DNA from: Escherichia coli
GTDB taxonomy: Bacteria; Pseudomonadota; Gammaproteobacteria; Enterobacterales; Enterobacteriaceae
Strand: one strand, 5' to 3'
DNA length: 64,000 nt
Assembly (NCBI RefSeq): GCF_029227855.1
Contig: NZ_CP074356.1
The notes below the pieces were generated by a model, which had not been told where the DNA came from, searched no databases, and saw nothing but the letters and a program-made list of their open reading frames with translations. Shown here in pieces: positions 431 to 45,311 of the stretch. The position numbers and the translations under genes were made by a program. Position 1 is the stretch's first letter; each line of letters begins with the position of its first letter.

Positions 431-2830
431 ATGAAGCTAACCGATGCGGATAATGCCGCCGATGGCATTTTTTTCCCCGCCCTTGAGCAAAATATGATGG
501 GCGCGGTGTTAATTAACGAAAATGATGAAGTGATGTTTTTCAACCCCGCCGCAGAGAAGCTCTGGGGGTACAAACGTGAAGAAGTTATTGGCAATAACAT
601 TGATATGCTGATTCCGCGGGATTTGCGTCCCGCGCATCCTGAATACATCCGTCACAACCGTGAAGGCGGTAAAGCGCGCGTCGAGGGGATGAGTCGGGAG
701 CTGCAGCTGGAGAAAAAAGACGGCAGTAAAATCTGGACCCGTTTTGCGCTATCGAAAGTGAGCGCCGAGGGTAAAATTTATTACCTGGCGCTGGTACGGG
801 ATGCCAGCGTAGAAATGGCGCAAAAAGAACAGACCCGACAATTGATTATTGCCGTTGACCATCTCGACCGACCGGTGATTGTCCTCGATCCGGAACGCCA
901 TATTGTGCAGTGCAATCGCGCATTTACCGAAATGTTTGGTTACTGCATTAGCGAAGCCAGCGGTATGCAGCCCGATACACTCCTGAACATTCCTGAATTC
1001 CCTGCCGATAACCGCATTCGTTTACAACAGTTGCTATGGAAAACCGCCCGCGATCAGGATGAATTTCTGCTGTTGACGCGCACCGGTGAAAAAATCTGGA
1101 TTAAAGCCTCTATCAGCCCGGTTTATGACGTGCTCGCGCATCTGCAGAACCTGGTAATGACTTTCTCGGATATCACCGAAGAACGGCAAATCCGCCAGCT
1201 TGAAGGCAATATTCTCGCCGCCATGTGCAGCAGCCCGCCATTTCATGAAATGGGGGAAATCATTTGTCGTAACATCGAATCTGTACTCAACGAATCGCAT
1301 GTTTCGCTGTTCGCGCTGCGCAACGGGATGCCGATACACTGGGCGTCATCTTCGCACGGTACAGAAGTTCAAAATGCGCAAAGCTGGTCAGCGACCATTC
1401 GTCAGCGTGATGGCGCGCCGGCGGGGATCCTGCAAATTAAAACCTCGTCAGGAGCAGAAACCAGCGCCTTTATCGAACGCGTGGCAGATATCAGCCAGCA
1501 TATGGCCGCGCTGGCGCTGGAACAGGAAAAAAGCCGTCAGCATATTGAACAACTCATCCAATTTGATCCGATGACCGGTCTGCCAAATCGCAATAACCTG
1601 CACAATTACCTCGATGACCTGGTCGACAAAGCCGTCTCTCCGGTGGTGTATCTCATCGGTGTTGACCATATTCAGGATGTGATTGATAGCCTTGGCTATG
1701 CGTGGGCCGATCAGGCATTGCTGGAAGTGGTCAATCGCTTTCGTGAAAAACTCAAACCGGATCAGTATCTCTGTCGTATCGAAGGTACGCCGTTTGTCCT
1801 CGTGAGCCTGGAAAACGACGTCAGTAACATAACCCAAATCGCCGATGAGCTACGGAATGTGGTCAGCAAGCCGATAATGATTGACGATAAACCATTCCCG
1901 CTCACCTTGAGCATTGGCATCAGCTACGACGTGGGTAAAAACCGCGATTACCTGCTCTCCACTGCTCACAATGCAATGGATTATATTCGCAAGAATGGCG
2001 GTAACGGCTGGCAGTTCTTCAGCCCGGCGATGAACGAAATGGTAAAAGAGCGTTTGGTTTTAGGCGCAGCGCTGAAAGAAGCGATTAGCAATAACCAACT
2101 GAAACTGGTTTACCAGCCACAAATCTTCGCAGAAACGGGTGAACTGTACGGCATCGAAGCCCTTGCTCGCTGGCACGATCCCCTGCATGGTCATGTGCCC
2201 CCTTCACGGTTTATTCCTCTCGCAGAAGAGATCGGTGAAATCGAAAATATTGGGCGCTGGGTCATCGCGGAAGCTTGCCGTCAGTTAGCAGAATGGCGTA
2301 GCCAGAATATTCATATCCCGGCGTTATCCGTTAACTTGTCAGCGCTGCACTTTCGCAGTAATCAACTGCCTAATCAGGTGTCTGATGCAATGCACGCCTG
2401 GGGTATTGACGGCCACCAGCTGACGGTGGAAATCACGGAAAGCATGATGATGGAACACGATACCGAAATCTTTAAGCGCATTCAGATCCTGCGCGATATG
2501 GGCGTGGGTTTATCGGTAGATGATTTTGGCACGGGCTTTTCCGGATTATCCCGCTTAGTCAGTCTTCCAGTAACGGAAATCAAAATTGACAAAAGTTTTG
2601 TCGATCGTTGTCTGACCGAAAAACGCATCCTTGCCTTACTTGAAGCCATTACCAGCATTGGGCAAAGCCTTAATTTAACCGTCGTGGCGGAAGGCGTCGA
2701 AACCAAAGAGCAATTTGAGATGCTACGCAAGATCCACTGTCGCGTTATTCAGGGATATTTCTTTTCCCGCCCCCTGCCCGCCGAAGAAATTCCAGGCTGG
2801 ATGAGCAGTGTGTTACCGCTGAAAATCTGA
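431..2830 (+). CDS. dosP: Oxygen-sensing c-di-GMP phosphodiesterase DosP (PAS-GGDEF-EAL)
   Basis: 799-codon ORF from MKLTDADNAADG; EAL-domain motifs near the C-terminus; synteny with dosC and ddpX. Confidence 0.9.
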   Translation: MKLTDADNAADGIFFPALEQNMMGAVLINENDEVMFFNPAAEKLWGYKREEVIGNNIDMLIPRDLRPAHPEYIRHNREGGKARVEGMSRELQLEKKDGSKIWTRFALSKVSAEGKIYYLALVRDASVEMAQKEQTRQLIIAVDHLDRPVIVLDPERHIVQCNRAFTEMFGYCISEASGMQPDTLLNIPEFPADNRIRLQQLLWKTARDQDEFLLLTRTGEKIWIKASISPVYDVLAHLQNLVMTFSDITEERQIRQLEGNILAAMCSSPPFHEMGEIICRNIESVLNESHVSLFALRNGMPIHWASSSHGTEVQNAQSWSATIRQRDGAPAGILQIKTSSGAETSAFIERVADISQHMAALALEQEKSRQHIEQLIQFDPMTGLPNRNNLHNYLDDLVDKAVSPVVYLIGVDHIQDVIDSLGYAWADQALLEVVNRFREKLKPDQYLCRIEGTPFVLVSLENDVSNITQIADELRNVVSKPIMIDDKPFPLTLSIGISYDVGKNRDYLLSTAHNAMDYIRKNGGNGWQFFSPAMNEMVKERLVLGAALKEAISNNQLKLVYQPQIFAETGELYGIEALARWHDPLHGHVPPSRFIPLAEEIGEIENIGRWVIAEACRQLAEWRSQNIHIPALSVNLSALHFRSNQLPNQVSDAMHAWGIDGHQLTVEITESMMMEHDTEIFKRIQILRDMGVGLSVDDFGTGFSGLSRLVSLPVTEIKIDKSFVDRCLTEKRILALLEAITSIGQSLNLTVVAEGVETKEQFEMLRKIHCRVIQGYFFSRPLPAEEIPGWMSSVLPLKI

Positions 2831-3087: not shown

Positions 3088-3669
3088 ATGTCGGATACCA
3101 CCGAACTGGTTGATTTAGCCGTGATCTTCCCTGATCTGGAGATCGAACTGAAATACGCCTGCGCTGATAACATCACAGGTAAAGCTATTTATCAGCAAGC
3201 GCGTTGTCTGTTACACAAGGATGCGATTACCGCGCTGGCGAAAAGTATCAGTATCGCCCAGCTGTCAGGCTTACAACTGGTGATTTACGATGCGTATCGC
3301 CCACAACAAACACAGGCGATGTTGTGGCAAGCCTGCCCAGACCCGCAATATGTTGTTGATGTGGCGGTCGGTTCTAATCACAGCCGTGGCACGGCGATCG
3401 ACCTGACGCTTCGTGATGAGCACGGGAACATCCTGGATATGGGTGCAGAGTTCGATGAAATGCACGAACGTTCCCATGCTTATCACCCTTCCGTCCCGCC
3501 CGCTGCTCAGCGCAATCGGCTGCTGCTGAATGCGATTATGACTGGCGGTGGCTTTGTCGGTATCACGAGCGAATGGTGGCACTTCGAATTACCCCAGGCA
3601 GCGAGTTACCCACTACTCGCTGATCAATTCACCTGTTTTATATCCCCTGGCACACAGCACGCCAGTTAA
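3088..3669 (+). CDS. ddpX: D-Ala-D-Ala dipeptidase
   Basis: 193 aa ORF, VanX-like zinc dipeptidase (SNHSRGTAIDL, EWWHFE); first gene of the ddp operon. Confidence 0.9.
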   Translation: MSDTTELVDLAVIFPDLEIELKYACADNITGKAIYQQARCLLHKDAITALAKSISIAQLSGLQLVIYDAYRPQQTQAMLWQACPDPQYVVDVAVGSNHSRGTAIDLTLRDEHGNILDMGAEFDEMHERSHAYHPSVPPAAQRNRLLLNAIMTGGGFVGITSEWWHFELPQAASYPLLADQFTCFISPGTQHAS

Positions 3670-3682
3670 TCAGGAAACTGTC

Positions 3683-5233
3683 ATGAAGAGATCGATTTCG
3701 TTTCGTCCTACATTGCTCGCGATCGTCCTTGCCACAACAATGCCGGTTGCGCACGCCGCCGTACCGAAAGATATGCTGGTGATCGGTAAAGCCGCCGACC
3801 CACAAACCCTCGACCCAGCGGTGACAATTGATAATAACGACTGGACAGTGACCTACCCGTCTTATCAGCGACTGGTTCAGTACAAAACGGACGGTGATAA
3901 AGGCTCAACCGACGTTGAAGGCGATCTGGCAAGTAGCTGGAAAGCGTCTGACGATCAAAAAGAGTGGACGTTCACCCTGAAGGACAATGCTAAATTTGCC
4001 GATGGCACACCTGTCACTGCCGAAGCAGTAAAACTCTCTTTTGAGCGGTTACTAAAAATCGGCCAGGGGCCAGCAGAAGCATTTCCCAAAGATTTAAAGA
4101 TTGATGCTCCCGACGAACATACGGTGAAGTTTACCCTTAGCCAGCCATTCGCACCGTTCCTCTATACGCTGGCGAATGACGGTGCATCCATTATCAATCC
4201 GGCGGTCTTAAAGGAACATGCGGCCGATGATGCCCGTGGTTTCCTCGCGCAAAATACCGCTGGCTCCGGACCGTTTATGCTGAAAAGCTGGCAAAAAGGT
4301 CAGCAATTAGTTCTGGTGCCAAATCCGCATTACTCCGGCAATAAACCGAACTTTAAGCGAGTATCGGTAAAAATTATCGGTGAAAGTGCCTCCCGTCGCC
4401 TGCAGCTCTCCCGTGGCGACATTGACATTGCCGATGCGCTGCCGGTGGATCAACTCAACGCACTGAAGCAGGAAAACAAAGTCAACGTGGCAGAGTATCC
4501 GTCACTGCGCGTCACCTATCTGTATCTGAATAACAGCAAAGCGCCACTTAATCAGGCGGATCTGCGTCGGGCCATTTCCTGGTCTACCGATTATCAGGGT
4601 ATGGTTAACGGCATTCTGAGTGGTAACGGAAAACAAATGCGCGGCCCGATTCCGGAAGGCATGTGGGGATACGATGCGACGGCAATGCAATACAACCATG
4701 ACGAAACGAAAGCCAAAGCCGAATGGGATAAAGTGACGAGCAAACCCACCAGCCTGACGTTTCTCTACTCCGATAACGACCCGAACTGGGAACCGATCGC
4801 TCTGGCGACACAATCCAGTCTCAACAAGCTGGGCATCAATGTGAAGCTGGAAAAACTGGCGAACGCCACCATGCGCGACAGAGTGGGTAAAGGTGATTAC
4901 GACATTGCGATTGGCAACTGGAGCCCGGATTTTGCCGACCCGTATATGTTTATGAATTACTGGTTTGAGTCAGACAAAAAAGGTCTGCCGGGTAACCGCT
5001 CGTTCTATGAAAACAGTGAGGTCGATAAGTTACTGCGCAATGCGCTAGCGACCACCGACCAGACGCAGCGTACCCGGGACTACCAGCAGGCACAGAAAAT
5101 CGTCATTGATGACGCTGCTTATGTGTACCTGTTCCAGAAAAACTACCAACTGGCGATGAACAAAGAGGTGAAAGGTTTTGTGTTCAATCCCATGCTGGAA
5201 CAGGTCTTCAATATCAATACCATGAGTAAATAA
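3683..5233 (+). CDS. ddpA: Periplasmic D,D-dipeptide-binding protein (ABC transporter SBP)
   Basis: 516 aa from MKRSISFRP with signal peptide; family-5 solute-binding protein; synteny. Confidence 0.9.
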   Translation: MKRSISFRPTLLAIVLATTMPVAHAAVPKDMLVIGKAADPQTLDPAVTIDNNDWTVTYPSYQRLVQYKTDGDKGSTDVEGDLASSWKASDDQKEWTFTLKDNAKFADGTPVTAEAVKLSFERLLKIGQGPAEAFPKDLKIDAPDEHTVKFTLSQPFAPFLYTLANDGASIINPAVLKEHAADDARGFLAQNTAGSGPFMLKSWQKGQQLVLVPNPHYSGNKPNFKRVSVKIIGESASRRLQLSRGDIDIADALPVDQLNALKQENKVNVAEYPSLRVTYLYLNNSKAPLNQADLRRAISWSTDYQGMVNGILSGNGKQMRGPIPEGMWGYDATAMQYNHDETKAKAEWDKVTSKPTSLTFLYSDNDPNWEPIALATQSSLNKLGINVKLEKLANATMRDRVGKGDYDIAIGNWSPDFADPYMFMNYWFESDKKGLPGNRSFYENSEVDKLLRNALATTDQTQRTRDYQQAQKIVIDDAAYVYLFQKNYQLAMNKEVKGFVFNPMLEQVFNINTMSK

Positions 5234-5234
5234 C

Positions 5235-6257
5235 GTGACCTTCTGGAGTATTTTACGCCAACGCTGCTGGGGGCTGGTGCTCGTGGTGGCGGGCGTCTGT
5301 GTGATAACGTTTATTATCTCGCACCTGATCCCCGGCGATCCGGCGCGGTTACTGGCGGGTGACCGCGCCAGCGATGCTATCGTGGATAATATTCGCCAGC
5401 AACTGGGACTGGACCAGCCACTGTACGTACAGTTTTACCGCTACGTCAGCGACCTGTTTCAGGGTGACCTGGGAACATCCATTCGTACCGGGCGTCCGGT
5501 GCTGGAAGAGTTGCGTATATTTTTCCCGGCGACGCTGGAACTGGCTTTTTGTGCCCTGCTGCTGGCACTCCTGATTGGCATCCCGCTGGGCATACTCTCT
5601 GCAGTCTGGCGAAATCGCTGGCTGGATCATCTGGTGCGAATAATGGCCATTACCGGAATCTCCACACCTGCGTTCTGGCTTGGGCTGGGCGTCATTGTGC
5701 TGTTTTATGGTCATCTGCAAATTCTTCCCGGCGGCGGAAGGCTTGATGACTGGCTGGATCCACCAACGCACGTTACCGGCTTTTATCTGCTCGATGCGCT
5801 GCTTGAAGGCAACGGTGAAGTCTTCTTCAATGCGCTGCAACATCTCATCTTACCGGCATTAACGCTGGCGTTCGTTCACCTGGGAATTGTCGCTCGCCAG
5901 ATCCGCTCAGCTATGCTGGAACAATTGAGTGAAGATTACATTCGTACCGCCCGGGCCAGCGGCTTGCCCGGCTGGTATATCGTTTTATGTTATGCGCTAC
6001 CCAATGCGTTGATCCCATCGATTACCGTATTGGGTCTGGCGCTGGGCGATTTGTTGTATGGCGCAGTGCTCACCGAAACCGTTTTTGCCTGGCCCGGAAT
6101 GGGTGCATGGGTAGTAACATCAATACAGGCGCTCGACTTCCCGGCAGTGATGGGCTTTGCCGTCGTGGTTTCATTTGCTTATGTGCTGGTCAACCTGGTG
6201 GTGGATTTGCTCTATTTGTGGATTGATCCGCGTATCGGACGTGGAGGTGGTGAATGA
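5235..6257 (+). CDS. ddpB: D,D-dipeptide ABC transporter permease
   Basis: 340 aa polytopic membrane protein, GTG start just after ddpA stop; DppB-like. Confidence 0.85.
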   Translation: MTFWSILRQRCWGLVLVVAGVCVITFIISHLIPGDPARLLAGDRASDAIVDNIRQQLGLDQPLYVQFYRYVSDLFQGDLGTSIRTGRPVLEELRIFFPATLELAFCALLLALLIGIPLGILSAVWRNRWLDHLVRIMAITGISTPAFWLGLGVIVLFYGHLQILPGGGRLDDWLDPPTHVTGFYLLDALLEGNGEVFFNALQHLILPALTLAFVHLGIVARQIRSAMLEQLSEDYIRTARASGLPGWYIVLCYALPNALIPSITVLGLALGDLLYGAVLTETVFAWPGMGAWVVTSIQALDFPAVMGFAVVVSFAYVLVNLVVDLLYLWIDPRIGRGGGE

Positions 6258-14124: not shown

Positions 14125-14790
14125 CCTATAAGGCTCTCTTACCAGCCGCGCCCTAACAGGCGCACACGATCTGACATTTGCATCCAACTTCGTTACTTAC
14201 GGCCCGTAAACGGGCTGCCCGGATAGGGAATCGATAACTGCTCTCCCATTTTATCCTCTTCAAGCTGGTGCTTTATGTAATCCTGTATCTTCGCCGTGTT
14301 CTTACCCACCGTATCGACGTAGTACCCTCTGCACCAGAACTCCCTGTTCCTGTATTTGAATTTCAAATCACCAAACTGCTCGTAAAGCATCAGACTGCTT
14401 TTCCCTTTCAGATATCCCATAAAGCCGGATACGCTCATTTTGGGCGGGATCTCCACAAGCATATGGATATGATCTGCACAGCATTCAGCTTCCAGAATCC
14501 GTACGCTTTTCCACTCACACAGCTTTCTCAAAATACTGCCTATTGCTCTACGCTTCTCTCTGTAGAACACCTGTCTTCGGTATTTTGGCGCAAAAACTAT
14601 GTGATATTTACAGTTCCATCGGGTGTGCGCTAAGCTCTTTTCGTTCCCCATTGGGACCCCCTTTTGATTTCTTGTTTGACACTTGCAGTTGCCAGACCGC
14701 AAAGTGTTTTAACAAATCAAAAGGGGTTTTAATAACTGGCTCAAAGCTGAAAGCTTTCCGGAACCCCCAGCCTAGCTGGGGGTTTTCTGT
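14125..14790 (-). mobile_element. IS200-family insertion sequence (boundaries approximate)
   Basis: Single Y1 HUH transposase gene plus stable hairpins in the tnpA leader (ccccc-agcctagct-ggggg around 14764-14782); no such element is expected between yddM and fdnI in K-12 from memory. Confidence 0.5.
14193..14651 (-). CDS. tnpA: IS200/IS605-family Y1 (HUH) transposase TnpA
   Basis: 152 aa from MGNEKSLAHTRWNCKYHIVFAPKYRR; HUH motif HIHMLV. Confidence 0.85.
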   Translation of the reverse strand: MGNEKSLAHTRWNCKYHIVFAPKYRRQVFYREKRRAIGSILRKLCEWKSVRILEAECCADHIHMLVEIPPKMSVSGFMGYLKGKSSLMLYEQFGDLKFKYRNREFWCRGYYVDTVGKNTAKIQDYIKHQLEEDKMGEQLSIPYPGSPFTGRK

Positions 14791-16388: not shown

Positions 16389-19300
16389 TTACGCCTTCTC
16401 AATGTTGACTAAGAACGCTTTATATTCCGGCGTTTGCGAGTTTGCATCACCGACATTCGGCGTCAGAGTGTTAGCGATATAACCTTTACGCGCGACACCC
16501 TCAAAGCCCCAGTGGATTGGAATACCCACCGTTTCAACCTGCTGACCGTTTACATTCAGCGGTTTCAGACGGCGCGTTACCACCGCCACCGCGCGGATAA
16601 AGCCACGCTTGCTTGAGACAGTGACACGATCGCCATTATTAATGCCTTTCGCCGCCGCCAGCGTTTCGCTGATTTCCACAAACTGTTCCGGCTGAGCAAT
16701 TGCGTTGAGCAACGCGTGCTTGGTCCAGGTGTGGAAGTGCTCGGTCAGACGATAGGTCGTACCCACATACGGGAACTGCTCTTTTTTACCCATCCGCAGC
16801 GCGTCTTGTTCATACAGACGAACCACCGGGTTAGACACCACGTTCGGATGCAGCGGGTTAGTGCCCAGCGGCGTTTCGATTGGCTCGTAGTGTTCCGGGA
16901 ACGGACCTTCCGCCATTTTGTTGATGGCAAACAGGCGTCCCATCCCTTCCGGCTGCATGATAAACGGCCCGGTTGGCGTACCCGGTGCGGCATTGCCGAA
17001 GTCAGGAATATCGTTACCCGTCCACTTGCTGCCGTTCCACTGGATCAGCATCCGTTTCGGATCCCACGGTTTACCGCTGATATCCGCCGAAGCACGGTTG
17101 TAGAGTACGCGACGGTTGAGCGGCCACGCCCAGGCCCATCCCAGCGTATTCCCCAGACCGGACGGGTCGGAGTTATCGCGGTTAGCCATCTGGTTGCCCT
17201 GCTCTGTCCAGCTACCGGTGTAGATCCAGCAAGACGATGCGGTTGTACCGTCATCACGCAGATGCGCAAAGCTACTCAGCAACTGACCTTTCTTCGCAAT
17301 CAGCACGCCATTAGCATCATAGAGATCTTCCAGCGCATAGCCGTTATTCTCTTTCGCCACTTCGTCAGACTGCGGTTCGTGCGGCTGCTTGTAGTTCCAG
17401 CTCATCTTCATCAGCGGTTCTACGCCTTTACCACCTTCGGCCTGGTACAGCTCGCGCAGATGATGGTAGATACCCGCCAGAATTTCGCCGTCGTTACGCG
17501 CTTCGCCCGGCGCATCCTGACCTTTCCAGTGCCACTGCAACCAGCGACCGGAGTTAGCGATAGAACCATCTTCTTCAGCAAAGCAGGTCGAAGGCAGACG
17601 GAATACCTCAGTCTGAATAGACGCCGGATCGACATCGTTCGACTCGCCGTGGTTCTGCCAGAAGGTAGAAGTTTCAGTCACCAGCGGATCGATAACCACC
17701 ATGTACTTCAGCTTGCTCAGGCAGCTCACCACTTTGTTTTTGTCCGGGAAGGACGCAACCGGGTTAAAGCCCTGGCAGAAATAACCGGTGACTTTGCCTT
17801 CATCCATCATGTTGAAATACTTGATGACGTCGTAGGTCTGGTCCCACTTAGGCAGCCAGTCGTAGCCCCAGTTATTCTCTTTCTGCGCGGCATCGCCGTA
17901 GAAAGATTTCATCAGGCTAACGAAGAACTTCGGATAGTTGCTCCAGTAGTTCACCTGATCAGCCAGCGTCGCTTTCGGCGTGTTCGCTTCCAGATACGAC
18001 TGCAAATCAACCTGTTTTTCTGACGGCAGCGTCAGATAACCCGGCAGGCTGGTAGAGAGCAGGCCTAAGTCGGTCAGCCCCTGAATGTTGGAGTGACCAC
18101 GCAATGCGTTCACGCCGCCACCGGCCATACCCATGTTACCGAGCAGTAACTGGATCATCGCCATAGTACGGATGTTCTGCGCACCCACGGTGTGCTGCGT
18201 CCAGCCCAGCGCGTAAAGGAAGGTGGTTGTGCGATCCGGTGCGCTGGTGGAGGCCAGCACTTCACACACTTTCAGGAAGTCGGCTTTTGGCGTACCACAG
18301 ATGTTTTCTACTACGTCCGGCGTGTAGCGGGAAACGTGCTCTTTCAGCAAGTTCCACACACAGCGCGGATGAGTCAGTGTTTCATCGCGTTTCGCATAGC
18401 CGTTTTCATCGAACTGATAGTTCCAGGACGATTTATCGTATTGACGTTTTTCAGCGTCGTAGCCGCTGAACAGACCGTCTTCGAAAGCAAAATCATCACG
18501 CACCAGCAGACTGGCGTTGGTGTAATGCTTAACGTATTCGGCGTTGATTTTGTTGTTTTCGATCAGGTAGCGCAAAACGCCAGACAGGAACGTAATGTCC
18601 GTACCGGAACGAATAGGTGCGTAAATATCCGCTACAGAAGCGGTACGCGTAAAACGGGGATCGACAACGATCAAGGTTGCATCGTTGTTGTTTTTCGCTT
18701 CCATCGCCCAGCGGAAACCGACGGGATGCGCTTCAGCAGCGTTACCGCCCATCACCATTACGACGTTAGCGTTTTTGATATCCACCCAGTGGTTGGTCAT
18801 CGCACCGCGACCAAATGTTGGAGCAAGACTTGCTACCGTTGGTCCGTGTCAGACGCGCGCCTGGTTGTCTACCGCCAGCATCCCGAGGGAGCGGGCAAAT
18901 TTCTGGGTCAGCATCCCGGTTTCGTTGCTGGCACCGGAGGCACACAGCATACCGGTAGAAAGCCAACGGTTTACCGTTACGCCCTGCTCGTTCTTTTCAA
19001 TAAAGTTAGCGTCACGGTCAGCTTTCATCAGCTTCGCAATACGGGAGAATGCTTCATCCCAGCTAATGCGCTGCCATTTGTCAGAACCTGGCGCACGATA
19101 TTCCGGGTAGCGCAGACGGTTTTCGCTGTTGACGTAATCCAGCAAACCGGCCCCTTTCGGGCACAGCGCACCACGGCTTACCGGATGATCCGGGTCACCT
19201 TCAATGTGATAAATCGCTTCTCTGGCGTTTTTCGCGCCATCACCCAGGCTATACATCAATAGCCCGCAACCTACGGAACAGTATGTGCAGGTGTTACGGA

Positions 19301-39480: not shown

Positions 39481-40032
39481 CTATCTTCTTAGCGATGTCT
39501 TTCTGGTATCACATTGGGTCGGTGCAATTATTTTTCCTTTAATACCCATTATGTTAAGAAATTCAGAAACAGCTGTAATCTCATTGTTTTTTTCATTCGT
39601 CTTGATCTTCCAAGGAATCTGACTGTGCATTATTGAGAACACACTAATAACGTGAATCGCTCCCTTGCGACGACTCTTGTCATAAGAGTACCGGAGCGTT
39701 TTTCCATCAATTGCAATGACGTCTTTATCATCTGAAGAATGGCAGTCAAGCATCCAGTTAATAAAGCACTCATGAAATTTTTCAGGACTGATACAGGATA
39801 CAACTCTGGCAATGGTATCGTGAACAGGAATACCATTATCAAAATCACCATATTGCTTCAAAAAATCGAGATGTGTTTCCCCAAAATCCTCTATATCTTC
39901 CCAGCCTTCTGCACCCGAAATAATGGCACAAATAGTCAACAGTAGAATATCCGATAATTTATGTTCCACTTTCCAGGCTTGTCTGTAATCGGGGGTAATA
40001 GAAATATGTTCCATCAATTTTTTAAATTCCAT
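39481..40032 (-). pseudogene. H-repeat-associated (ISAs1-family) transposase, N-terminal fragment (183 codons), truncated at its junction with the cyclase island
   Basis: Near-identical over about 170 aa to the N-terminus of the full-length H-rpt ORF at 46075..47211, then diverges into a short unrelated tail. Confidence 0.7.
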
Positions 40033-40160
40033 TTTGTTCTCCTTAATTATGTAAGGAGTATTTGATCATGTATAAGCAATAAAAAACAGCTTTAGGTAAT
40101 GAGGAATATCTCAATTTTTAAACATAAAATGCGAATTATTTAGTACAAAAAAGCAGCGTT
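39481..40160 (-). repeat. Direct repeat copy A (H-rpt 5' region plus N-terminal coding part), paired with 46660..47340
   Basis: Matching strings include ccattttgttctccttaattatgtaaggagtatttgatcatgta and ctcaatttttaaacataaaatgcgaattatttagtacaaaaa. Confidence 0.6.
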
Positions 40161-40617
40161 ACGTGATCTTTCCGTGGATCGTCAAATTGTTCGAGAGAAA
40201 ATACCAACATGATGGATTTTACTGTAAAAGTAATGTCGTAGTTTAAAAACTCATCATCCGGTAAAGCCTTGTGGGGCGTGGGCTTTCATACTTTTACCCT
40301 GATGTCTGCTATACGCCGGACACCCTTTACGTAGCATTCGGAATTCACCCGTAAATTTATCACGGCGGTATCACGAAACCTCCGGTTCTGATGCCGCTTA
40401 GGACTAACGACACGTCAACACAGGTTCGGGTTTATTCATTTCACTGTATCTCATATAATCTGAGCACTCCCCCTGCGCTCGCTACTATGACTCTTTACCA
40501 CAGCAACCGGGGTTGTTTGGGATCGGCTTTCAACAGCAGATCCCGGTGGCTATTGCAAGTAAGTCTACTTTCCACATCAGTGTTACTGACACAGAAAATA
40601 ATGAGTTATGATCCTTG

Positions 40618-41103
40618 TCATATTTTTAATATAGCCCCATGAGCTATAGGATCAAAACCTTCTAACCATGAGGTGTTTTTATCGAATAATGCACCTGTTA
40701 TATTTATATCGCCATATCTATCACATAATAAATTAGCGCCACATAAGTCAGCACCAGAAAAATTTGAATCTTTAACGTCTGCATTGCAAAAGGTTGAATT
40801 AGTTAATATAGCACCCTCAAAGTTTGCACCTATTGACCTTGAATTACTAAAGTCACTTCCAGTGAAATCTGAGTTATTAAGAATAGCGTTCATCAGAGCC
40901 GCATTGCGAAAGACAGCATTTCTAGTTGATGTATGTTGAATCATTACATTTCTTAAATGGGAATTTTCAAATTTCGCCCCATCAAGACAATAACCATTGA
41001 GGATGGCACGATGTAGATCCATCCCGCTAAAATCATATCCAGCAAGAGTGGTACTATCTATATCAAGAAATTTATTGGTTATTAAAAACGCGATTCTTAT
41101 CAT
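40618..41103 (-). CDS. Pentapeptide-repeat protein, putative immunity protein for the rhs2 C-terminal toxin
   Basis: 161 aa with about 20 tandem pentapeptide repeats ([25 protein letters not shown] ... [10 protein letters not shown]); start overlaps the rhs2 stop as ATGA. Confidence 0.6.
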
Positions 41104-44100
41104 CTATTCCCCCAATCATCTAACTCCGGAAAAATTTGGCTAAACGGATATAGTGGTGCCGATAATGGACGCGTACCTGGCCGCTCAGGAGGAAGTTTAT
41201 CACATAACAGACCCGCAACCATCCTGTGATTACCATTAACAATCACATTCCCATCCATATCAACCGGTGGTGCTCCACTACCATCTTCCAGCATTTGTAC
41301 GTAGTGAGCTACTACGGGTACTGAGACTTTTTGTTGTACTGTCAACAAGGGACTGTTGGCCACAACCATCCTGATGTTTTCAGGTGTCGCAGGTAAACAT
41401 TTAGTCTTCTCTTGACTAAAGGTATCATCCCACAATTTTGTTAAACCCATCACTGCCTGTTGTCTGTATTTATCCATGGGGTCAGCAATCAACCAAGATG
41501 GACCTGACTGCTCTATGGAATCTTCTCCGGAGAGACCCAACGGATCTATCTTAGTAGTTGGATTCAATGGATACTGATACAGGTTCCATGCACCTCTTAG
41601 CCCAATGGGATCCTGGGTGATATACCGCCCCTGCAACGGGTCATAGTACCGGTTGCGGTTATAGTACAGCCCCGACTCCTCATCATACTGCTGCCCCGGC
41701 AGACGGTACGGCTGTTGCAGTTGCTGCGCGCTGGTTTCGCCCAGCAGGTTTCCCCACTCGTCATACTCCCCCTGCCACGCCGTTTCCCCTACCGGGCTGA
41801 TGAGCGCCTGCGGCAGCCCCCGGTGGTCGCAGTGGTAAAGATGAAGTGTCCTCTCCGGGATGTATTCCGCCTCCATCTGGTTTTTCATCTGTTCCGCCGT
41901 CAGCCCGCACTGCTGAAGCCATGCCTCACTCTCCGCACTCACCGCACCCGCGCGCAGTTCCCGCTCCAGCCTCCCCAGCATCACCGACAGCTCCGCCGGT
42001 AGCGTCACCCCCGTGTCCTCCTGCAACACCTCCGCCAGACTCCGGTGCCGCGCCTTCGCCTGTTCACCATTCTCTGTTTCGATTCTGATGAGCGGCGTGA
42101 AGCTCCCCGGCTGGTATACCGTCTGGATACGCGTGGTGCCGGTCTGTACCGTCGTCAGCCTGTCACCGTCCCACCCGTACCAGGTCTCCTCCGGTTTACG
42201 CGACAGCGACATCCACCCCGTCAGGTCACGCTCCCGCCGCCACACCCGTTTCCCCGTCCGGCGGCCCAGCGGGTCATAGAGGTAGCGGCTCTCCACCTGT
42301 GGTTCGCCGTGCTGTATCCGCGTGTAGAACACCAGGCGGTGCTGGCTGTCGTAATGGTAGTGGTGGGTCCGCTCGTCGTGCATCCGGATAACCCCTTCCG
42401 GGATACGATCCGTCTTCTCCGCCAGCCTGCCGTATTCATCGTGGCGGTAGACATAGTGCGCATCCTCCGCGATGCGGTTATCCGGCCACGCCGTGAAGGT
42501 GCTGTCCGGGTGCAGTTCCGGGTCCGGCAGCCGGTTTCCTGCCGGGTCCGTCGCATACGGGATATCGATATCCAGGTTCGCCGCCGTGGTGTGAACGCCC
42601 GTCAGTCTTCCCGTGTCGCTGTAACGGTACTTCCGGCTCTCCTGCGGGCCGCTGATGCGCACCAGTTGCCCGTTATCGTTCCACGTATACTCACGGTCAA
42701 GCTGCGGAAGGTTCAGGTGCCTGCTCCGGAGCTGCCCTGTGAGGGTGTACGCCATGGCCTGTTCGTACCCCGCTGTACTGCCCGCCCCGCCGAAGCTGCG
42801 GGCCGTCTCACGGTGCAGCCGGTCCCGCGTGTACTCGACCAGCGGCGTTCCGCCCAGCTTCATCCCCGCAAGATAACCGCTGCCATACGTCAGCCACTCC
42901 ACCGGCGGCAGACCGTCCGGCTCCTGACGGGTCGCCAGCCCCTGTTCGCTGTAGACGTGCCTCGTCTCATGCTCCCACAGCATCTCCCCCGTCTCCTGGT
43001 TCTCCACCGTCTGCCGTTCGCCCGTCAGGCGGCCTTTATCGTCATAGCCGTAGTGGACCGCCACACGGTGGCCTTCGCTCAGGTGGCTGATTTCTGTCAG
43101 CCAGCCGTGGTCGTCATACTGCCACTGCTCCGCCGGGTCGCCGTTCACCGTCCGGTGCGTGATGCGCCCGGCGTCATCGTAGTACCACTGCGTGACCTGC
43201 CCCTCATCCTCGCTGCGGATGAGCTGCCCTGTGGCGCTGTACCGGTAACGCTGTGTCCTGCCGTCAAAGCCGCGCTGCTCCGTCAGCCTGTCCACCGGGT
43301 CATACCGGAACGTGGACTGGCTGCCGTTCTCGTTGGTCAGCACGGTGATGCGCCCGGCGGCGTCATACTCCATGCTGCGCGTCAGTCCGCCCTGCGTGGT
43401 GCTGACGGCCTTTCCCCACGCATCATACTGTGTCTCACTCCGGCTGCCGTTCGGGGCAATGATAGCGGTGAGGTCGCCTGCGGCGCTGTACTCATAACGG
43501 GTTTCACGTCCCTGCGCATCCTTCTGACTGACCAGTTGACCACGCGGGTTATAACTGCTGTAAGTGCTGATGCCTTCCTCCCGGTGAACCGCCGTCCTCT
43601 GACCGTACCGGTCGTATTCATACCGCGTCGTGTACCCTGAACAGTCCGTAAATGCCTGAAGCTGACCGTACCGGTTTCGCGTTATTCTCCGCCTCACCCC
43701 GGTTCCGTCTTCCACCGCACAGGGCAGGCCACTGCGGGAAGAATCATAAAACCAGCGCGTAATGTTACCGTTGCGCGAGACCTCTTCCGCCAGCCTGCCC
43801 TGACGGTCATATTTCCGGCTGCGGCGCAGCCCGTCCGGGTACGTCACTGACGTCAGTTGCAACTGGTTGTTGTAACCATACCGTACCGTCCTGCCGTCCG
43901 GCAGTATCACTGAAGTCAGCTTTCCCGACGCCATATGCAGCCGGTACTCCGTCCGCCGTCCCGCCGCATCCGTCTGCGCCTTCAGCCTCCCCGCCTCATC
44001 ATACTCGCTGCGGGTGATGCTCCCGTCCCCATGCTCCTTCTTCACCACCCGCTTCAGGCCGCCCTCGCCCTCCGTGTACAGCACCTCCCGCCGGTTCAGG

Positions 44101-45311
44101 CTGTCCGTGATGGTCACGCGGTCCTGCCCGTACTCAAAGCGGTAGTCCAGCCCCTCCGGGTTGACCTGCTCCGTCACCCGACCGGTATCATCATACCGGT
44201 AGCGGCTCTCCGGCCTCCCCGCATAATGGTGCGCCACCATCCGCCCGGCGTGCTCCGCATCATAAGTAAACCCGCGCACCTGCGTCCCGCTGCGGTCATA
44301 CACCGCCCGCAGTTCTCCGCTGGCCGTGTACGTGTAGCGCGCCAGCGGCGCAGTCGGCAGTTCATCCAGGTATGCCAGGTCGTGTGTCAGCCATACCGCC
44401 TCCAGCCGGATACCGTTATCGGCACCGTACTCTGTACCGGTGGGCAGCGTGTCGGGGAAAACCTGAGAAGAGGAAACAGAACGGGGACTGGCCGGAGAAG
44501 ATAAAGAAGAGGCGCGCTGTTTACGGAAGGCTTTCGCCCGCTGCGCCTGTGTGGTCAGCGCCAGATGAAAACGGCGGCCCGCGCCGTCCGTCACCCCCGT
44601 CACCGCGCCCGCCGCTTCCCCCTCTGCCGCCCGGTGGAAGGCCAGCGTCCGCCCGAAGCTGTCCACCACGCCCGTCAGCACCCGGTATGCGGGCGGCTCC
44701 GGCGGCAGCACCTCGTCCGCCTCCGGCACCCGCTCCGGCCAGCCGAGTATCCACCACGGCCCCTGAAGGCTGTTTGTCGCCAGGTACACATGCGGGCTTA
44801 AGCGGAGACTCTCCGGCAGCACCTGCCAGAGCGCGCTTAGCGGCTGCGAACTGTGCTGCTCCGCCACCCCGCCCCTTGCCAGCCAGAACGACTCGCTGCG
44901 GCTGTAGCTTATCTCGCCGGGAAACAGCGGCTCAAAGTGAATGCTCCTGCCGCCACTGTCGTTGAGTATCAGTTCCCGCTCATGAACCTGTAAGCGGATA
45001 TCGAAGGGCGCTTTCCAGCCGGGACCAAACACCCCCACCGGCGCGGGTGTTCTGGTCCGGTAGCTGCTGTAGGCGCGGGAAAGAATAAACGGCAACGGGC
45101 CGGGCAGCGCAAGATCCGTCTCGCCCGGCAGCACCTTCGCACCCAGTAGCGGGTTCACCGGGTTACCCTTCTGCTCCTCCACCGGGCTGTTGGGACACAC
45201 CGAGCAGGCCACTCCCGTCGGCGCACCTATCAGCACCCCCGCTGAACCCTGCACAATATCCAGTCCCTTGCGGGTCATATCGCCCTGTCGCGCCGCCGGT
45301 TTTCCGCTCAT
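41100..45311 (-). CDS. Full-length Rhs polymorphic toxin (PAAR-like N-terminus, YD-repeat shell, DPxGL cleavage motif, unassigned C-terminal tip)
   Basis: 1403 aa intact ORF; N-terminus [12 protein letters not shown]..; many YD repeats; ...[16 protein letters not shown]...IDPLGL followed by about 145 aa of sequence unrelated to rhs1. Confidence 0.9.
41500..45311 (-). repeat. Rhs core, direct repeat with the rhs1 core at 48540..52088
   Basis: Long near-identical protein stretches between the two rhs ORFs (e.g. [54 protein letters not shown] in both), same strand. Confidence 0.7.

Follow-up and report, generated by a model that had tools for sequence, protein, structure and literature searches.

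A group II intron fragment and two truncated ISAs1-family elements downstream of an rhs immunity gene in Escherichia coli

The Locus and Its Composition

The 64-kb stretch of DNA analyzed here, referred to as the window, is a part of the Escherichia coli chromosome in which an rhs gene is followed by a small pentapeptide-repeat gene, presumably the Rhs immunity gene, and by a truncated H-rpt element (Table 1). The genes narI, yddE, nhoA, yddH and pptA, an alkyl sulfatase gene and a GGDEF gene lie to the left. The pentapeptide-repeat gene overlaps the rhs stop codon by 4 nt. Its product is also matched by NCBIfam pentapeptide families and is annotated by PGAP as "pentapeptide repeat-containing protein" in L001 (numbers of this kind denote loci fetched for comparison). 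Between this gene and the truncated H-rpt transposase gene there is a gap of 585 nt (40033-40617), under which no feature is annotated in the 30 best-matching RefSeq genomes. It is this gap that we focus on.

An earlier sequence-only reading of the same DNA had described the gap as free of ORFs above 83 codons and richer in GC than its AT-rich surroundings. Both descriptions hold. The sole ORF of at least 40 aa encodes 83 aa (40391..40642, plus strand), and the longest stretch between two stop codons runs to 95 codons. With sliding windows of 200 nt, the GC content is 0.445-0.48 over 40200-40599 and 0.29-0.36 beside it. Divided by part, the core at 40302-40550 has a GC content of 0.50, compared with flanks of 29-39%: 0.39 at 40177-40301, 0.34 at 40551-40617 and 0.29 at 40033-40176. 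The immunity gene and the truncated H-rpt ORF have values of 0.35 and 0.375, respectively. This bump in GC is simply the foreign base composition of a group II intron, of which the core is a remnant. The same reading had given the ORF-free part as about 470 bp beyond the H-rpt repeat. The correct figure is 441 nt (40177-40617), as the H-rpt left inverted repeat occupies 40164-40176. The value of about 470 fits position 40151, where similarity to the other H-rpt copy of the window stops.

By megablast, the 585-nt query matches 5,332 of 5,426 complete E. coli genomes, the median number of places per genome being five, and the whole stretch is present in just 144 of them. Strains with this locus include JNEC-KY178, CFSAN061763 and KE55. 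Within these 144 genomes the mosaic is 99-100% conserved, which is expected of a recent clonal lineage and is uninformative on selection. Read from 5' to 3' on the minus strand, the order is rhs, the immunity gene, a tail of 67 nt, nucleotides 80-339 of the intron, nucleotides 1-125 of an ISAs1-family element that we call type B, and nucleotides 1 to about 695 of H-rpt. The identity, order, orientation and exact junctions of these pieces are matters of observation, and one intron and two insertion sequences account for 518 of the 585 nt of the gap.

Table 1. Features of the rhs locus and of the gap downstream of its immunity gene (window coordinates)
Feature	Position	Strand	Evidence
rhs gene, 1,403-aa Rhs protein	45311-41100	-	
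Pentapeptide-repeat gene, 161 aa, presumed Rhs immunity gene	40618..41103	-	ORF; Pfam PF00805 Pentapeptide, 69.8 bits
AT-rich tail directly after the immunity stop codon	40551..40617	.	GC 0.34, close to the immunity gene (0.35)
E.c.I9-like bacterial class D group II intron, internal domain I fragment, nt 80-339 of 1,887	40302..40550	-	RF01999 and blastn
EBS1 hexamer CGUGAU (probable)	40370..40375	-	Covariation with 5' exon ends
Second ISAs1-family element (type B), first 125 nt: left inverted repeat CAGGGTAAAAGTATG... and leader	40177..40301	-	Match to L030
H-rpt (ISEc1-like, ISAs1 family) left terminal inverted repeat CACGGAAAGATCA	40164..40176	-	Pattern CAGGGAAAGATCA, 1 mismatch
H-rpt 5' leader, between the inverted repeat and the transposase ATG at 40032	40033..40163	-	Widespread match
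H-rpt transposase gene, N-terminal half	39482..40032 (ORF to 39481)	-	NF033564 transpos_ISAs1, 168.5 bits

An Internal Piece of Intron Domain I

The core of the gap was recognized through its structure as well as its sequence. The Rfam model RF01999 (group-II-D1D4-2) matches 40442-40550 on the minus strand with 48 bits against a gathering score of 36, and the match also passes when the entire 64-kb window is scanned at gathering thresholds (E = 1.2e-6). It is the sole significant Rfam match in the region. The proposal in the earlier reading that the segment might be a structured RNA is thus borne out in part: the core derives from domain I of a group II intron, though it is a decayed internal fragment rather than an RNA gene in itself. 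The several stem-capable stretches that it had remarked upon are real, yet modest by energy alone. When 40302-40550 is folded on the minus strand, the z-score is -1.75 and 9 of 200 shuffled sequences fold as well. The firm structural evidence for the region is the covariance-model match. Intact relatives score 90-105 bits on RF01999, and the fragment falls short of this because the first hairpin of the model has been lost and the last is damaged.

Searching the E. coli genomes by blastn with 40178-40617 as the query gave a consistent delimitation, with minus-strand query positions 69-316 (40549-40302) being the only ones to match an intron elsewhere. These matches fall into three classes. The identity is about 84% in ECOR29; some 2,300 genomes have a shorter piece at about 88%; and about 175 genomes have a match at 70.6%. 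In this last class the intron is complete, includes an ltrA gene and splits an H-rpt transposase ORF (L003, L006). Compared with the full-length intron of L005, the fragment is 83.5% identical over nucleotides 80-339 (blastn); its identity is 85.4% to L007, 84.2% to L002 and 70.6% to the E.c.I2-like intron of L003. Of its 249 nt, about 10% are substituted, and a further 12 nt have been deleted. It is also the only intron-homologous stretch of the window.

What is missing is considerable. The homology begins at intron nucleotide 80, so that the 5' splice site GUGYG and the preceding exon with IBS1 and IBS2 are absent, and the 67 nt upstream of the fragment have no similarity to the 5' end of the intron or to the stub of the H-rpt repeat. 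The sequence GTGTC at 40594 was considered as a possible 5' end, as a GTGT...ACAC hairpin close by has a vague likeness to the beginning of the L003 intron; it was rejected, there being no homology upstream of 40550. At the other end, the intron homology stops at nucleotide 339 and domains II-VI are missing. The model for domains V and VI (RF00029) has no match anywhere in the window, compared with 58 and 62 bits in L003 and L005. A reverse transcriptase/maturase was not found either, as there is no ORF of more than 83 aa and the longest stop-to-stop pieces in the six frames match no protein family. On anatomical grounds, the remnant presumably cannot splice, reverse-splice or move: its catalytic core is missing, and along with domains II-VI it has lost the 5' splice site and the reverse transcriptase/maturase.

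One recognition element of the intron has probably survived. The hexamer CGUGAU (40375-40370) is complementary to AUCACG, the six bases with which the 5' exon closes in L002, L005 and L007; in all three, the boundary between exon and intron reads ...GATCACG|GTGTGCCG. In the E.c.I2-like intron the aligned bases are CGTCCA, and there the 5' exon closes with TGGACG. This covariation with the exon ends suggests that CGUGAU is the probable EBS1 of the fragment.

Relation to E.c.I9 and E.c.I2

Two class D introns, E.c.I2 and E.c.I9, specifically target Rhs-associated ISEc1 at two different positions, and both are listed as being "in a Rhs region" (Leclercq and Cordaux, PLoS One 2012; PMC3522654). 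Table S2 of that study includes, among the fragments of E.c.I9, E.c.I9-1/tr1 of 193 bp (Sakai, EDL933, IAI1 and others) and E.c.I9-tr2 of 159 bp (BL21, REL606). The fragment of Sakai and O157 among our loci (L009, L004) fits E.c.I9-1/tr1 in both length (193 nt) and locus (an Rhs region of Sakai). The blastn class with 84-88% identity was therefore assigned to E.c.I9, because Sakai (L009) carries in an Rhs region the 193-nt fragment seen in L004. Roughly 2,800 E. coli genomes have fragments of the E.c.I9 type.

A full-length example of the E.c.I9 type is provided by L005. This intron has 1,887 nt (3502-5388), scores 92 bits on RF01999 and 61.9 bits on RF00029 (domains V/VI), and encodes a reverse transcriptase/maturase of 440 aa (TIGR04416, 424 bits). 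It occupies the same chromosomal locus as the window, between the Rhs cassette and pptA, and is inserted 15 nt into the left repeat of H-rpt, with the junctions ...CAGGGGAAGATCACG|GTGTGCCG...CTACTCACT|AGAAGTACAC....

The window fragment resembles E.c.I9 and its catalogued fragments in lineage (83-85% identity overall and up to 91% over the distal 149 nt), in place (between the Rhs cassette and H-rpt, and in the same orientation as both) and in fate, being a dead piece of domain I which the left end of an ISAs1-family element has cut on the 3' side. It differs from the catalogued fragments in being internal (nucleotides 80-339), whereas they keep the 5' splice site and a 15-nt stub of the repeat; in being cut by the type-B element, whereas theirs were cut by H-rpt; and in its 12-nt deletion. 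Judged by its sequence, the fragment is E.c.I9-like, diverged by more than 10% and not in the published catalogue, and under the Zbase rule of PMC3522654 it would not bear the name E.c.I9. To E.c.I2 it is related more distantly, with 70.6% identity over the fragment. E.c.I2 shares the host element family but has a different homing site, inside the H-rpt transposase ORF after ...CTGGACG, with CGUCCA as EBS1. No copy of E.c.I2 is found in the window. In one metagenome contig (L027), a full-length and 100% identical copy of E.c.I2 lies in the H-rpt just downstream of the same mosaic.

A closer full-length parent was sought and not found in any of the collections searched. Among the 5,426 complete E. 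coli genomes the best candidate is 85% identical overall and 91% over the distal 149 nt, and plasmids gave five weak matches. With one genome per species there were 17 loci, the best being 90% identical over 143 nt in an Escherichia sp. contig; the remaining loci are at most 73% identical, except for two short local matches of 57 and 40 nt. In metagenomes, a fragment-specific 26-mer retrieved six contigs, all with the same mosaic at 99%. Part of the divergence of the fragment from its relatives could be decay in place.

Two Truncated ISAs1-Family Elements

Both insertion-sequence stubs in the window start with the CAGGG... repeat of the family, as do H-rpt/ISEc1 and other Rhs-associated ISAs1-family elements. 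Of elements roughly 1.3 kb long, 125 nt and about 695 nt remain in the window, with no right end and no complete transposase. A pair of ends flanked by a target duplication is not present, since neither fragment has its right end.

The left boundary of H-rpt is supported in several ways. The pattern CAGGGAAAGATCA, with one mismatch allowed, is matched five times in the window, compared with 1.0 expected by chance, and the exact consensus CAGGGAAAGATCA stands at the other H-rpt of the window (47355-47343). Matches to the query in other genomes end at query position 141-147, i.e., at about 40176. Query positions 1-145 are matched in 5,332 of 5,426 E. coli genomes (98%), usually under or beside an "ISAs1 family transposase", and the leader is 98.3% identical to that of the second H-rpt at 47212-47330. 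The transposase gene covers positions 1-142 of the 314 in the NF033564 profile and is thus incomplete, in agreement with the PGAP annotation "ISAs1 family transposase, frameshifted; incomplete". Compared with the native H-rpt, the truncated copy is 91% identical over 40151-39482, after which the homology stops, leaving about 695 nt of an element of roughly 1.3 kb.

The nature of the 125 nt between H-rpt and the intron piece became evident from a metagenome contig, L030. Positions 40303-40177 (minus strand) align without gaps to L030 526-652 with 106 of 127 nt identical (83%; E = 3e-35). In L030, the matched stretch starts with CAGGGAAAAAGCATG and is followed, 47 nt further downstream, by an ISAs1-family transposase gene, which matches NF033564 with 71 and 293 bits in two ORFs split by a stop. 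For the 87 nt at 40177-40263, it was L030 that first gave a similarity. The first 34-38 nt of the type-B stub match the repeat at the right end of the native H-rpt of the window, a score that none of 2,000 shuffled sequences reached. From the 34-nt part of this match, 40264-40301 had been considered an inverted H-rpt right end on the plus strand. This was rejected, as L030 shows that all 125 nt are a left end, and the match reflects the terminal inverted repeats of about 36 nt in the ISAs1 family. The stub ends before the ORF, so it has no transposase gene, and it has no right end. The 125 nt are found in 145 complete E. coli genomes, with a median of two places in each. The 3' part of the type-B element is also present in the window at about 46060-45722.

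The 67 nt that remain, between the intron piece and the immunity gene, were found in no genome without this immunity gene, the two being present in the same 143. They have no similarity to any fetched locus except their own copy in L001, and no terminator or promoter was called within them. Most simply, this tail would be the 3' end of the imported Rhs tip/immunity cassette.

Junctions and a Proposed History

At both internal junctions of the mosaic, from intron to type B and from type B to H-rpt, the truncated piece gives way to an ISAs1 left repeat precisely at base 1 of that repeat. Copies of the E.c.I9-type intron elsewhere are cut at nucleotides 193 (L004/L009), 460 (L007) and 757 (L002/L008), and the junctions of L004/L009, L007 and L002 read a complete H-rpt left repeat directly after the intron cut. 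No 3' part of the intron was found within the 3.5-4 kb of fetched flanks of L004/L009, L007 and L002/L008. Given the exact position of the two junctions in the window, the cuts would be best explained by one of two routes: an adjacent deletion mediated by the insertion sequence (intramolecular transposition), or an insertion after which copies of the insertion sequence lying in the same orientation recombined. A simple insertion would not suffice, because the rest of the intron is absent beyond the insertion sequence.

From the anatomy of the junctions we infer the following order of events, as well as the mechanism of deletion. An E.c.I9-type intron would first have retrohomed into the left repeat of an ISAs1-family element (H-rpt) adjoining an Rhs element; full-length copies of this type in other strains sit today in the H-rpt left repeat next to Rhs. 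The joining of a type-B left end would then have cut the intron at nucleotide 339, and the left end of the present H-rpt would in turn have cut the type-B element at its nucleotide 125; H-rpt itself is truncated after about 695 nt. The first 79 nt of the intron and the 5' exon would also have been lost, probably when the AT-rich tip/immunity cassette with its 67-nt tail was recombined in.

The same parts could have been assembled by another history, in which the junctions are ordinary illegitimate deletions unrelated to insertion sequences and their coincidence with ISAs1 termini is fortuitous. Plain deletions or recombination have clearly also happened at this locus, given that the 5' boundary of the intron piece (40550/40551) and the 3' truncation of H-rpt (39482) coincide with no recognized element end. 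For the internal junctions, however, such a history has only a slim chance of being correct, as random deletions would be very unlikely to place the two junctions of the window and at least three independent junctions elsewhere at base 1 of an ISAs1 left repeat.

Our preferred reading, to which we assign a probability of roughly 0.87, is that three truncated mobile elements lie stacked as fossils in the segment, in the orientation of rhs and downstream of the Rhs toxin/immunity cassette, and that the segment has no function of its own.

Could the Segment Have a Function?

The gap has no function detectable from its sequence. Promoter and terminator motifs do not exceed the expectation from shuffled sequences, and none lies inside 40177-40617. 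The intron fragment might nevertheless have been exapted as a functional structured RNA, either as a stabilizing 3' UTR of the transcript of rhs and its immunity gene, or as a trans-acting RNA whose EBS1 loop pairs with AUCACG of H-rpt. Hairpins of domain I are still recognizable in it (48 bits), as is the probable EBS1 hexamer; the adjoining H-rpt left repeat contains the complementary GATCACG; and read-through is plausible, as the immunity gene directly precedes the fragment on the same strand and no terminator is predicted between the two. Against this, the folding energy is not exceptional (z = -1.75), helices have been lost and intact copies reach about twice its covariance score. Other lineages keep 159, 193, 460 or 757 nt of the same intron, a pattern which fits random truncation and not a selected RNA. 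A resemblance to the small RNA RsmY, the only other Rfam suggestion, was rejected at 15.8 bits against a threshold of 57 (E = 0.23-0.57). Exaptation is thus very improbable. Slightly less probable still is its most specific version, in which a domain I RNA made by read-through would pair through CGUGAU with AUCACG of H-rpt and so dampen transposase expression or transposition, or would stabilize the toxin-immunity mRNA. A better-founded view than exaptation is that the cuts at ISAs1 left repeats (intron nucleotides 193, 339, 460 and 757; type-B nucleotide 125) may represent a fossil record of repeated H-rpt/ISAs1 adjacent deletions in Rhs loci.

Orphan arrays of toxin tips and immunity genes do occur downstream of Rhs genes, in the same position relative to rhs and the immunity gene as the gap, and the sequence-only reading had accordingly entertained a decayed orphan immunity gene or toxin tip, as would be left after displacement of an Rhs C-terminal cassette. 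In L005, too, a pseudogene annotated "RHS repeat-associated core domain" and small ORFs lie between the main immunity gene and the intron. Yet this is the least probable of the explanations considered: it is largely refuted for the 518 nt positively identified as intron or ISAs1 ends, although the 67-nt tail could in principle be such debris, and, in contrast to these arrays, neither a remnant of a coding sequence nor anything resembling an Rhs core or tip was found in the gap. A coding remnant was rejected on the longest stop-to-stop pieces of all six frames, as neither the ten longest of the 13 pieces of at least 25 aa (Pfam) nor the six longest (NCBIfam) gave a match with an E value of 1 or less. 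Outside its intron part, 40178-40617 has no blastn match (word size 11; 5,426 E. coli genomes) beyond the same locus in 143-144 genomes, with the exception of 40177-40301, the type-B left end, which has a second place in most of these genomes and occurs in one other genome.

Significance

The segment matters little in itself. An unannotated gap of 585 bp in about 144 complete E. coli genomes is explained as debris of mobile elements, and it can be dropped from the candidates for RNA genes and for orphan toxin-immunity modules. A possible annotation would be a group II intron fragment at 40302-40550 and partial ISAs1-family elements at 40177-40301 and 39482-40176. Dead fragments of the E.c.I9 type beside Rhs-associated H-rpt were already documented; here such a fragment is nested with a second ISAs1 stub. 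To the dead group II introns of Rhs regions it adds one more E.c.I9-like fragment, internal and more diverged, in agreement with the published picture of these introns as being inactivated and not proliferating (Leclercq and Cordaux, 2012; PMC3522654). The exact junctions between repeats and fragments, in the window and at other loci, provide anatomical, indirect evidence that Rhs-associated ISAs1 elements have taken an active part in remodeling the loci in which they reside.

Elements around the rhs gene

The intact rhs reading frame in the window (1,403 codons, 4,212 nt) differs by a single-base indel from its copy at L001, the JNEC-KY178 locus, where the Rhs core gene is 4,211 nt long and is labeled 'frameshifted' by PGAP. 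At 40033-40617, by contrast, the JNEC-KY178 copy matches the window with 100% identity. No significant Pfam domain was found in the C-terminal ~200 aa of the Rhs protein, past the DPLGL motif. The cognate gene downstream encodes a pentapeptide-repeat protein with a Qnr/MfpA-like fold class, which hints that the Rhs toxin may have a DNA-binding target such as a topoisomerase.

Upstream of rhs, the 3' third of a type-B ISAs1 element directly abuts the right end of an intact-looking H-rpt, which makes a further nested ISAs1 pair. Also upstream of the gene is an H-rpt left-repeat stub that stands alone. Its 5' context ('aaaccattagagtaaccaaat...ggaggaat') is the same as that of the full-length E.c.I9-type intron at a further E. 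coli locus (L005), but an unrelated palindromic sequence, TTAAAGTTGTGATTATCATCACAACTTTAA, follows on the 3' side where L005 has the intron. Other Rfam matches in the window are an sRNA and a selenocysteine insertion element.

Coordinates of the intron, ISAs1 and rhs features and of other Rfam matches
Feature	Location	Strand	Remarks
Cut E.c.I9-type intron	L004 3894-4130		to be compared with window 40176-40302
Cut E.c.I9-type intron	L009 (Sakai) 1300-1540		same comparison
Cut E.c.I9-type intron	L007 3296-3790		same comparison
Cut E.c.I9-type intron	L002 3905-4700		same comparison
Truncated H-rpt, left end	window 40162-40176	-	GGAAAGATCACG followed by TAACGC
Pentapeptide-repeat gene	window 40618-41103	-	
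Rhs C-terminal region	window 41100-41699	-	
rhs ORF	window 41100-45311		
Type-B ISAs1, 3' third	window 45722-46060	-	ORF end ...LSLILAGCGPS*; right repeat ...TTTCGCCCTG
Intact-looking H-rpt	window 47355-46065		
H-rpt left-repeat stub	window 47522-47534	-	CAGGGGAAGATCA; within 47590-47480
STnc490 Hfq-binding sRNA	window 14661-14784	-	Rfam, above threshold, 144.6 bits
SECIS_3 selenocysteine insertion element	window 18796-18854	-	Rfam, above threshold, 84.3 bits
Rhs core gene	L001 8068-12278		
Window mosaic and downstream H-rpt with E.c.I2-type intron	L027 9805-12963		

Introns and H-rpt left ends

The left end of the truncated H-rpt, separated from the dead intron by just 125 nt, contains the 5'-exon sequence GATCACG, a match to the relic's probable EBS1 (CGUGAU). 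It resembles a vacant E.c.I9-type 5' exon, although the 3'-exon side is not AGAAGT.

The window mosaic is also present in the metagenome contig SKEE01002008.1 (L027), where the downstream H-rpt is full length, in contrast to the truncated copy of the window. At the canonical site in its transposase ORF, this H-rpt carries a complete E.c.I2-type intron of 1,890 nt, 100% identical to that of the E. coli locus L003. On this contig, an intact E.c.I2 intron therefore lies within ~1.3 kb of the dead E.c.I9-like relic.

Cut E.c.I9-type introns occur at four other E. coli loci (L004, L009, L007 and L002). The truncation point varies by locus (nt 193, 460 and 757, in Rhs and O-antigen loci), and in every copy a complete H-rpt left repeat starts, with its base 1, exactly at the cut. 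A left-repeat stub of 13-16 nt lies 5' of each cut copy, and in O157 strains the stubs form a tandem pair, CAGGGAAAGATCA CAGGGAAAGATCATCG. Together, these cuts and stubs suggest that ISAs1 elements repeatedly deleted adjacent DNA or targeted themselves.
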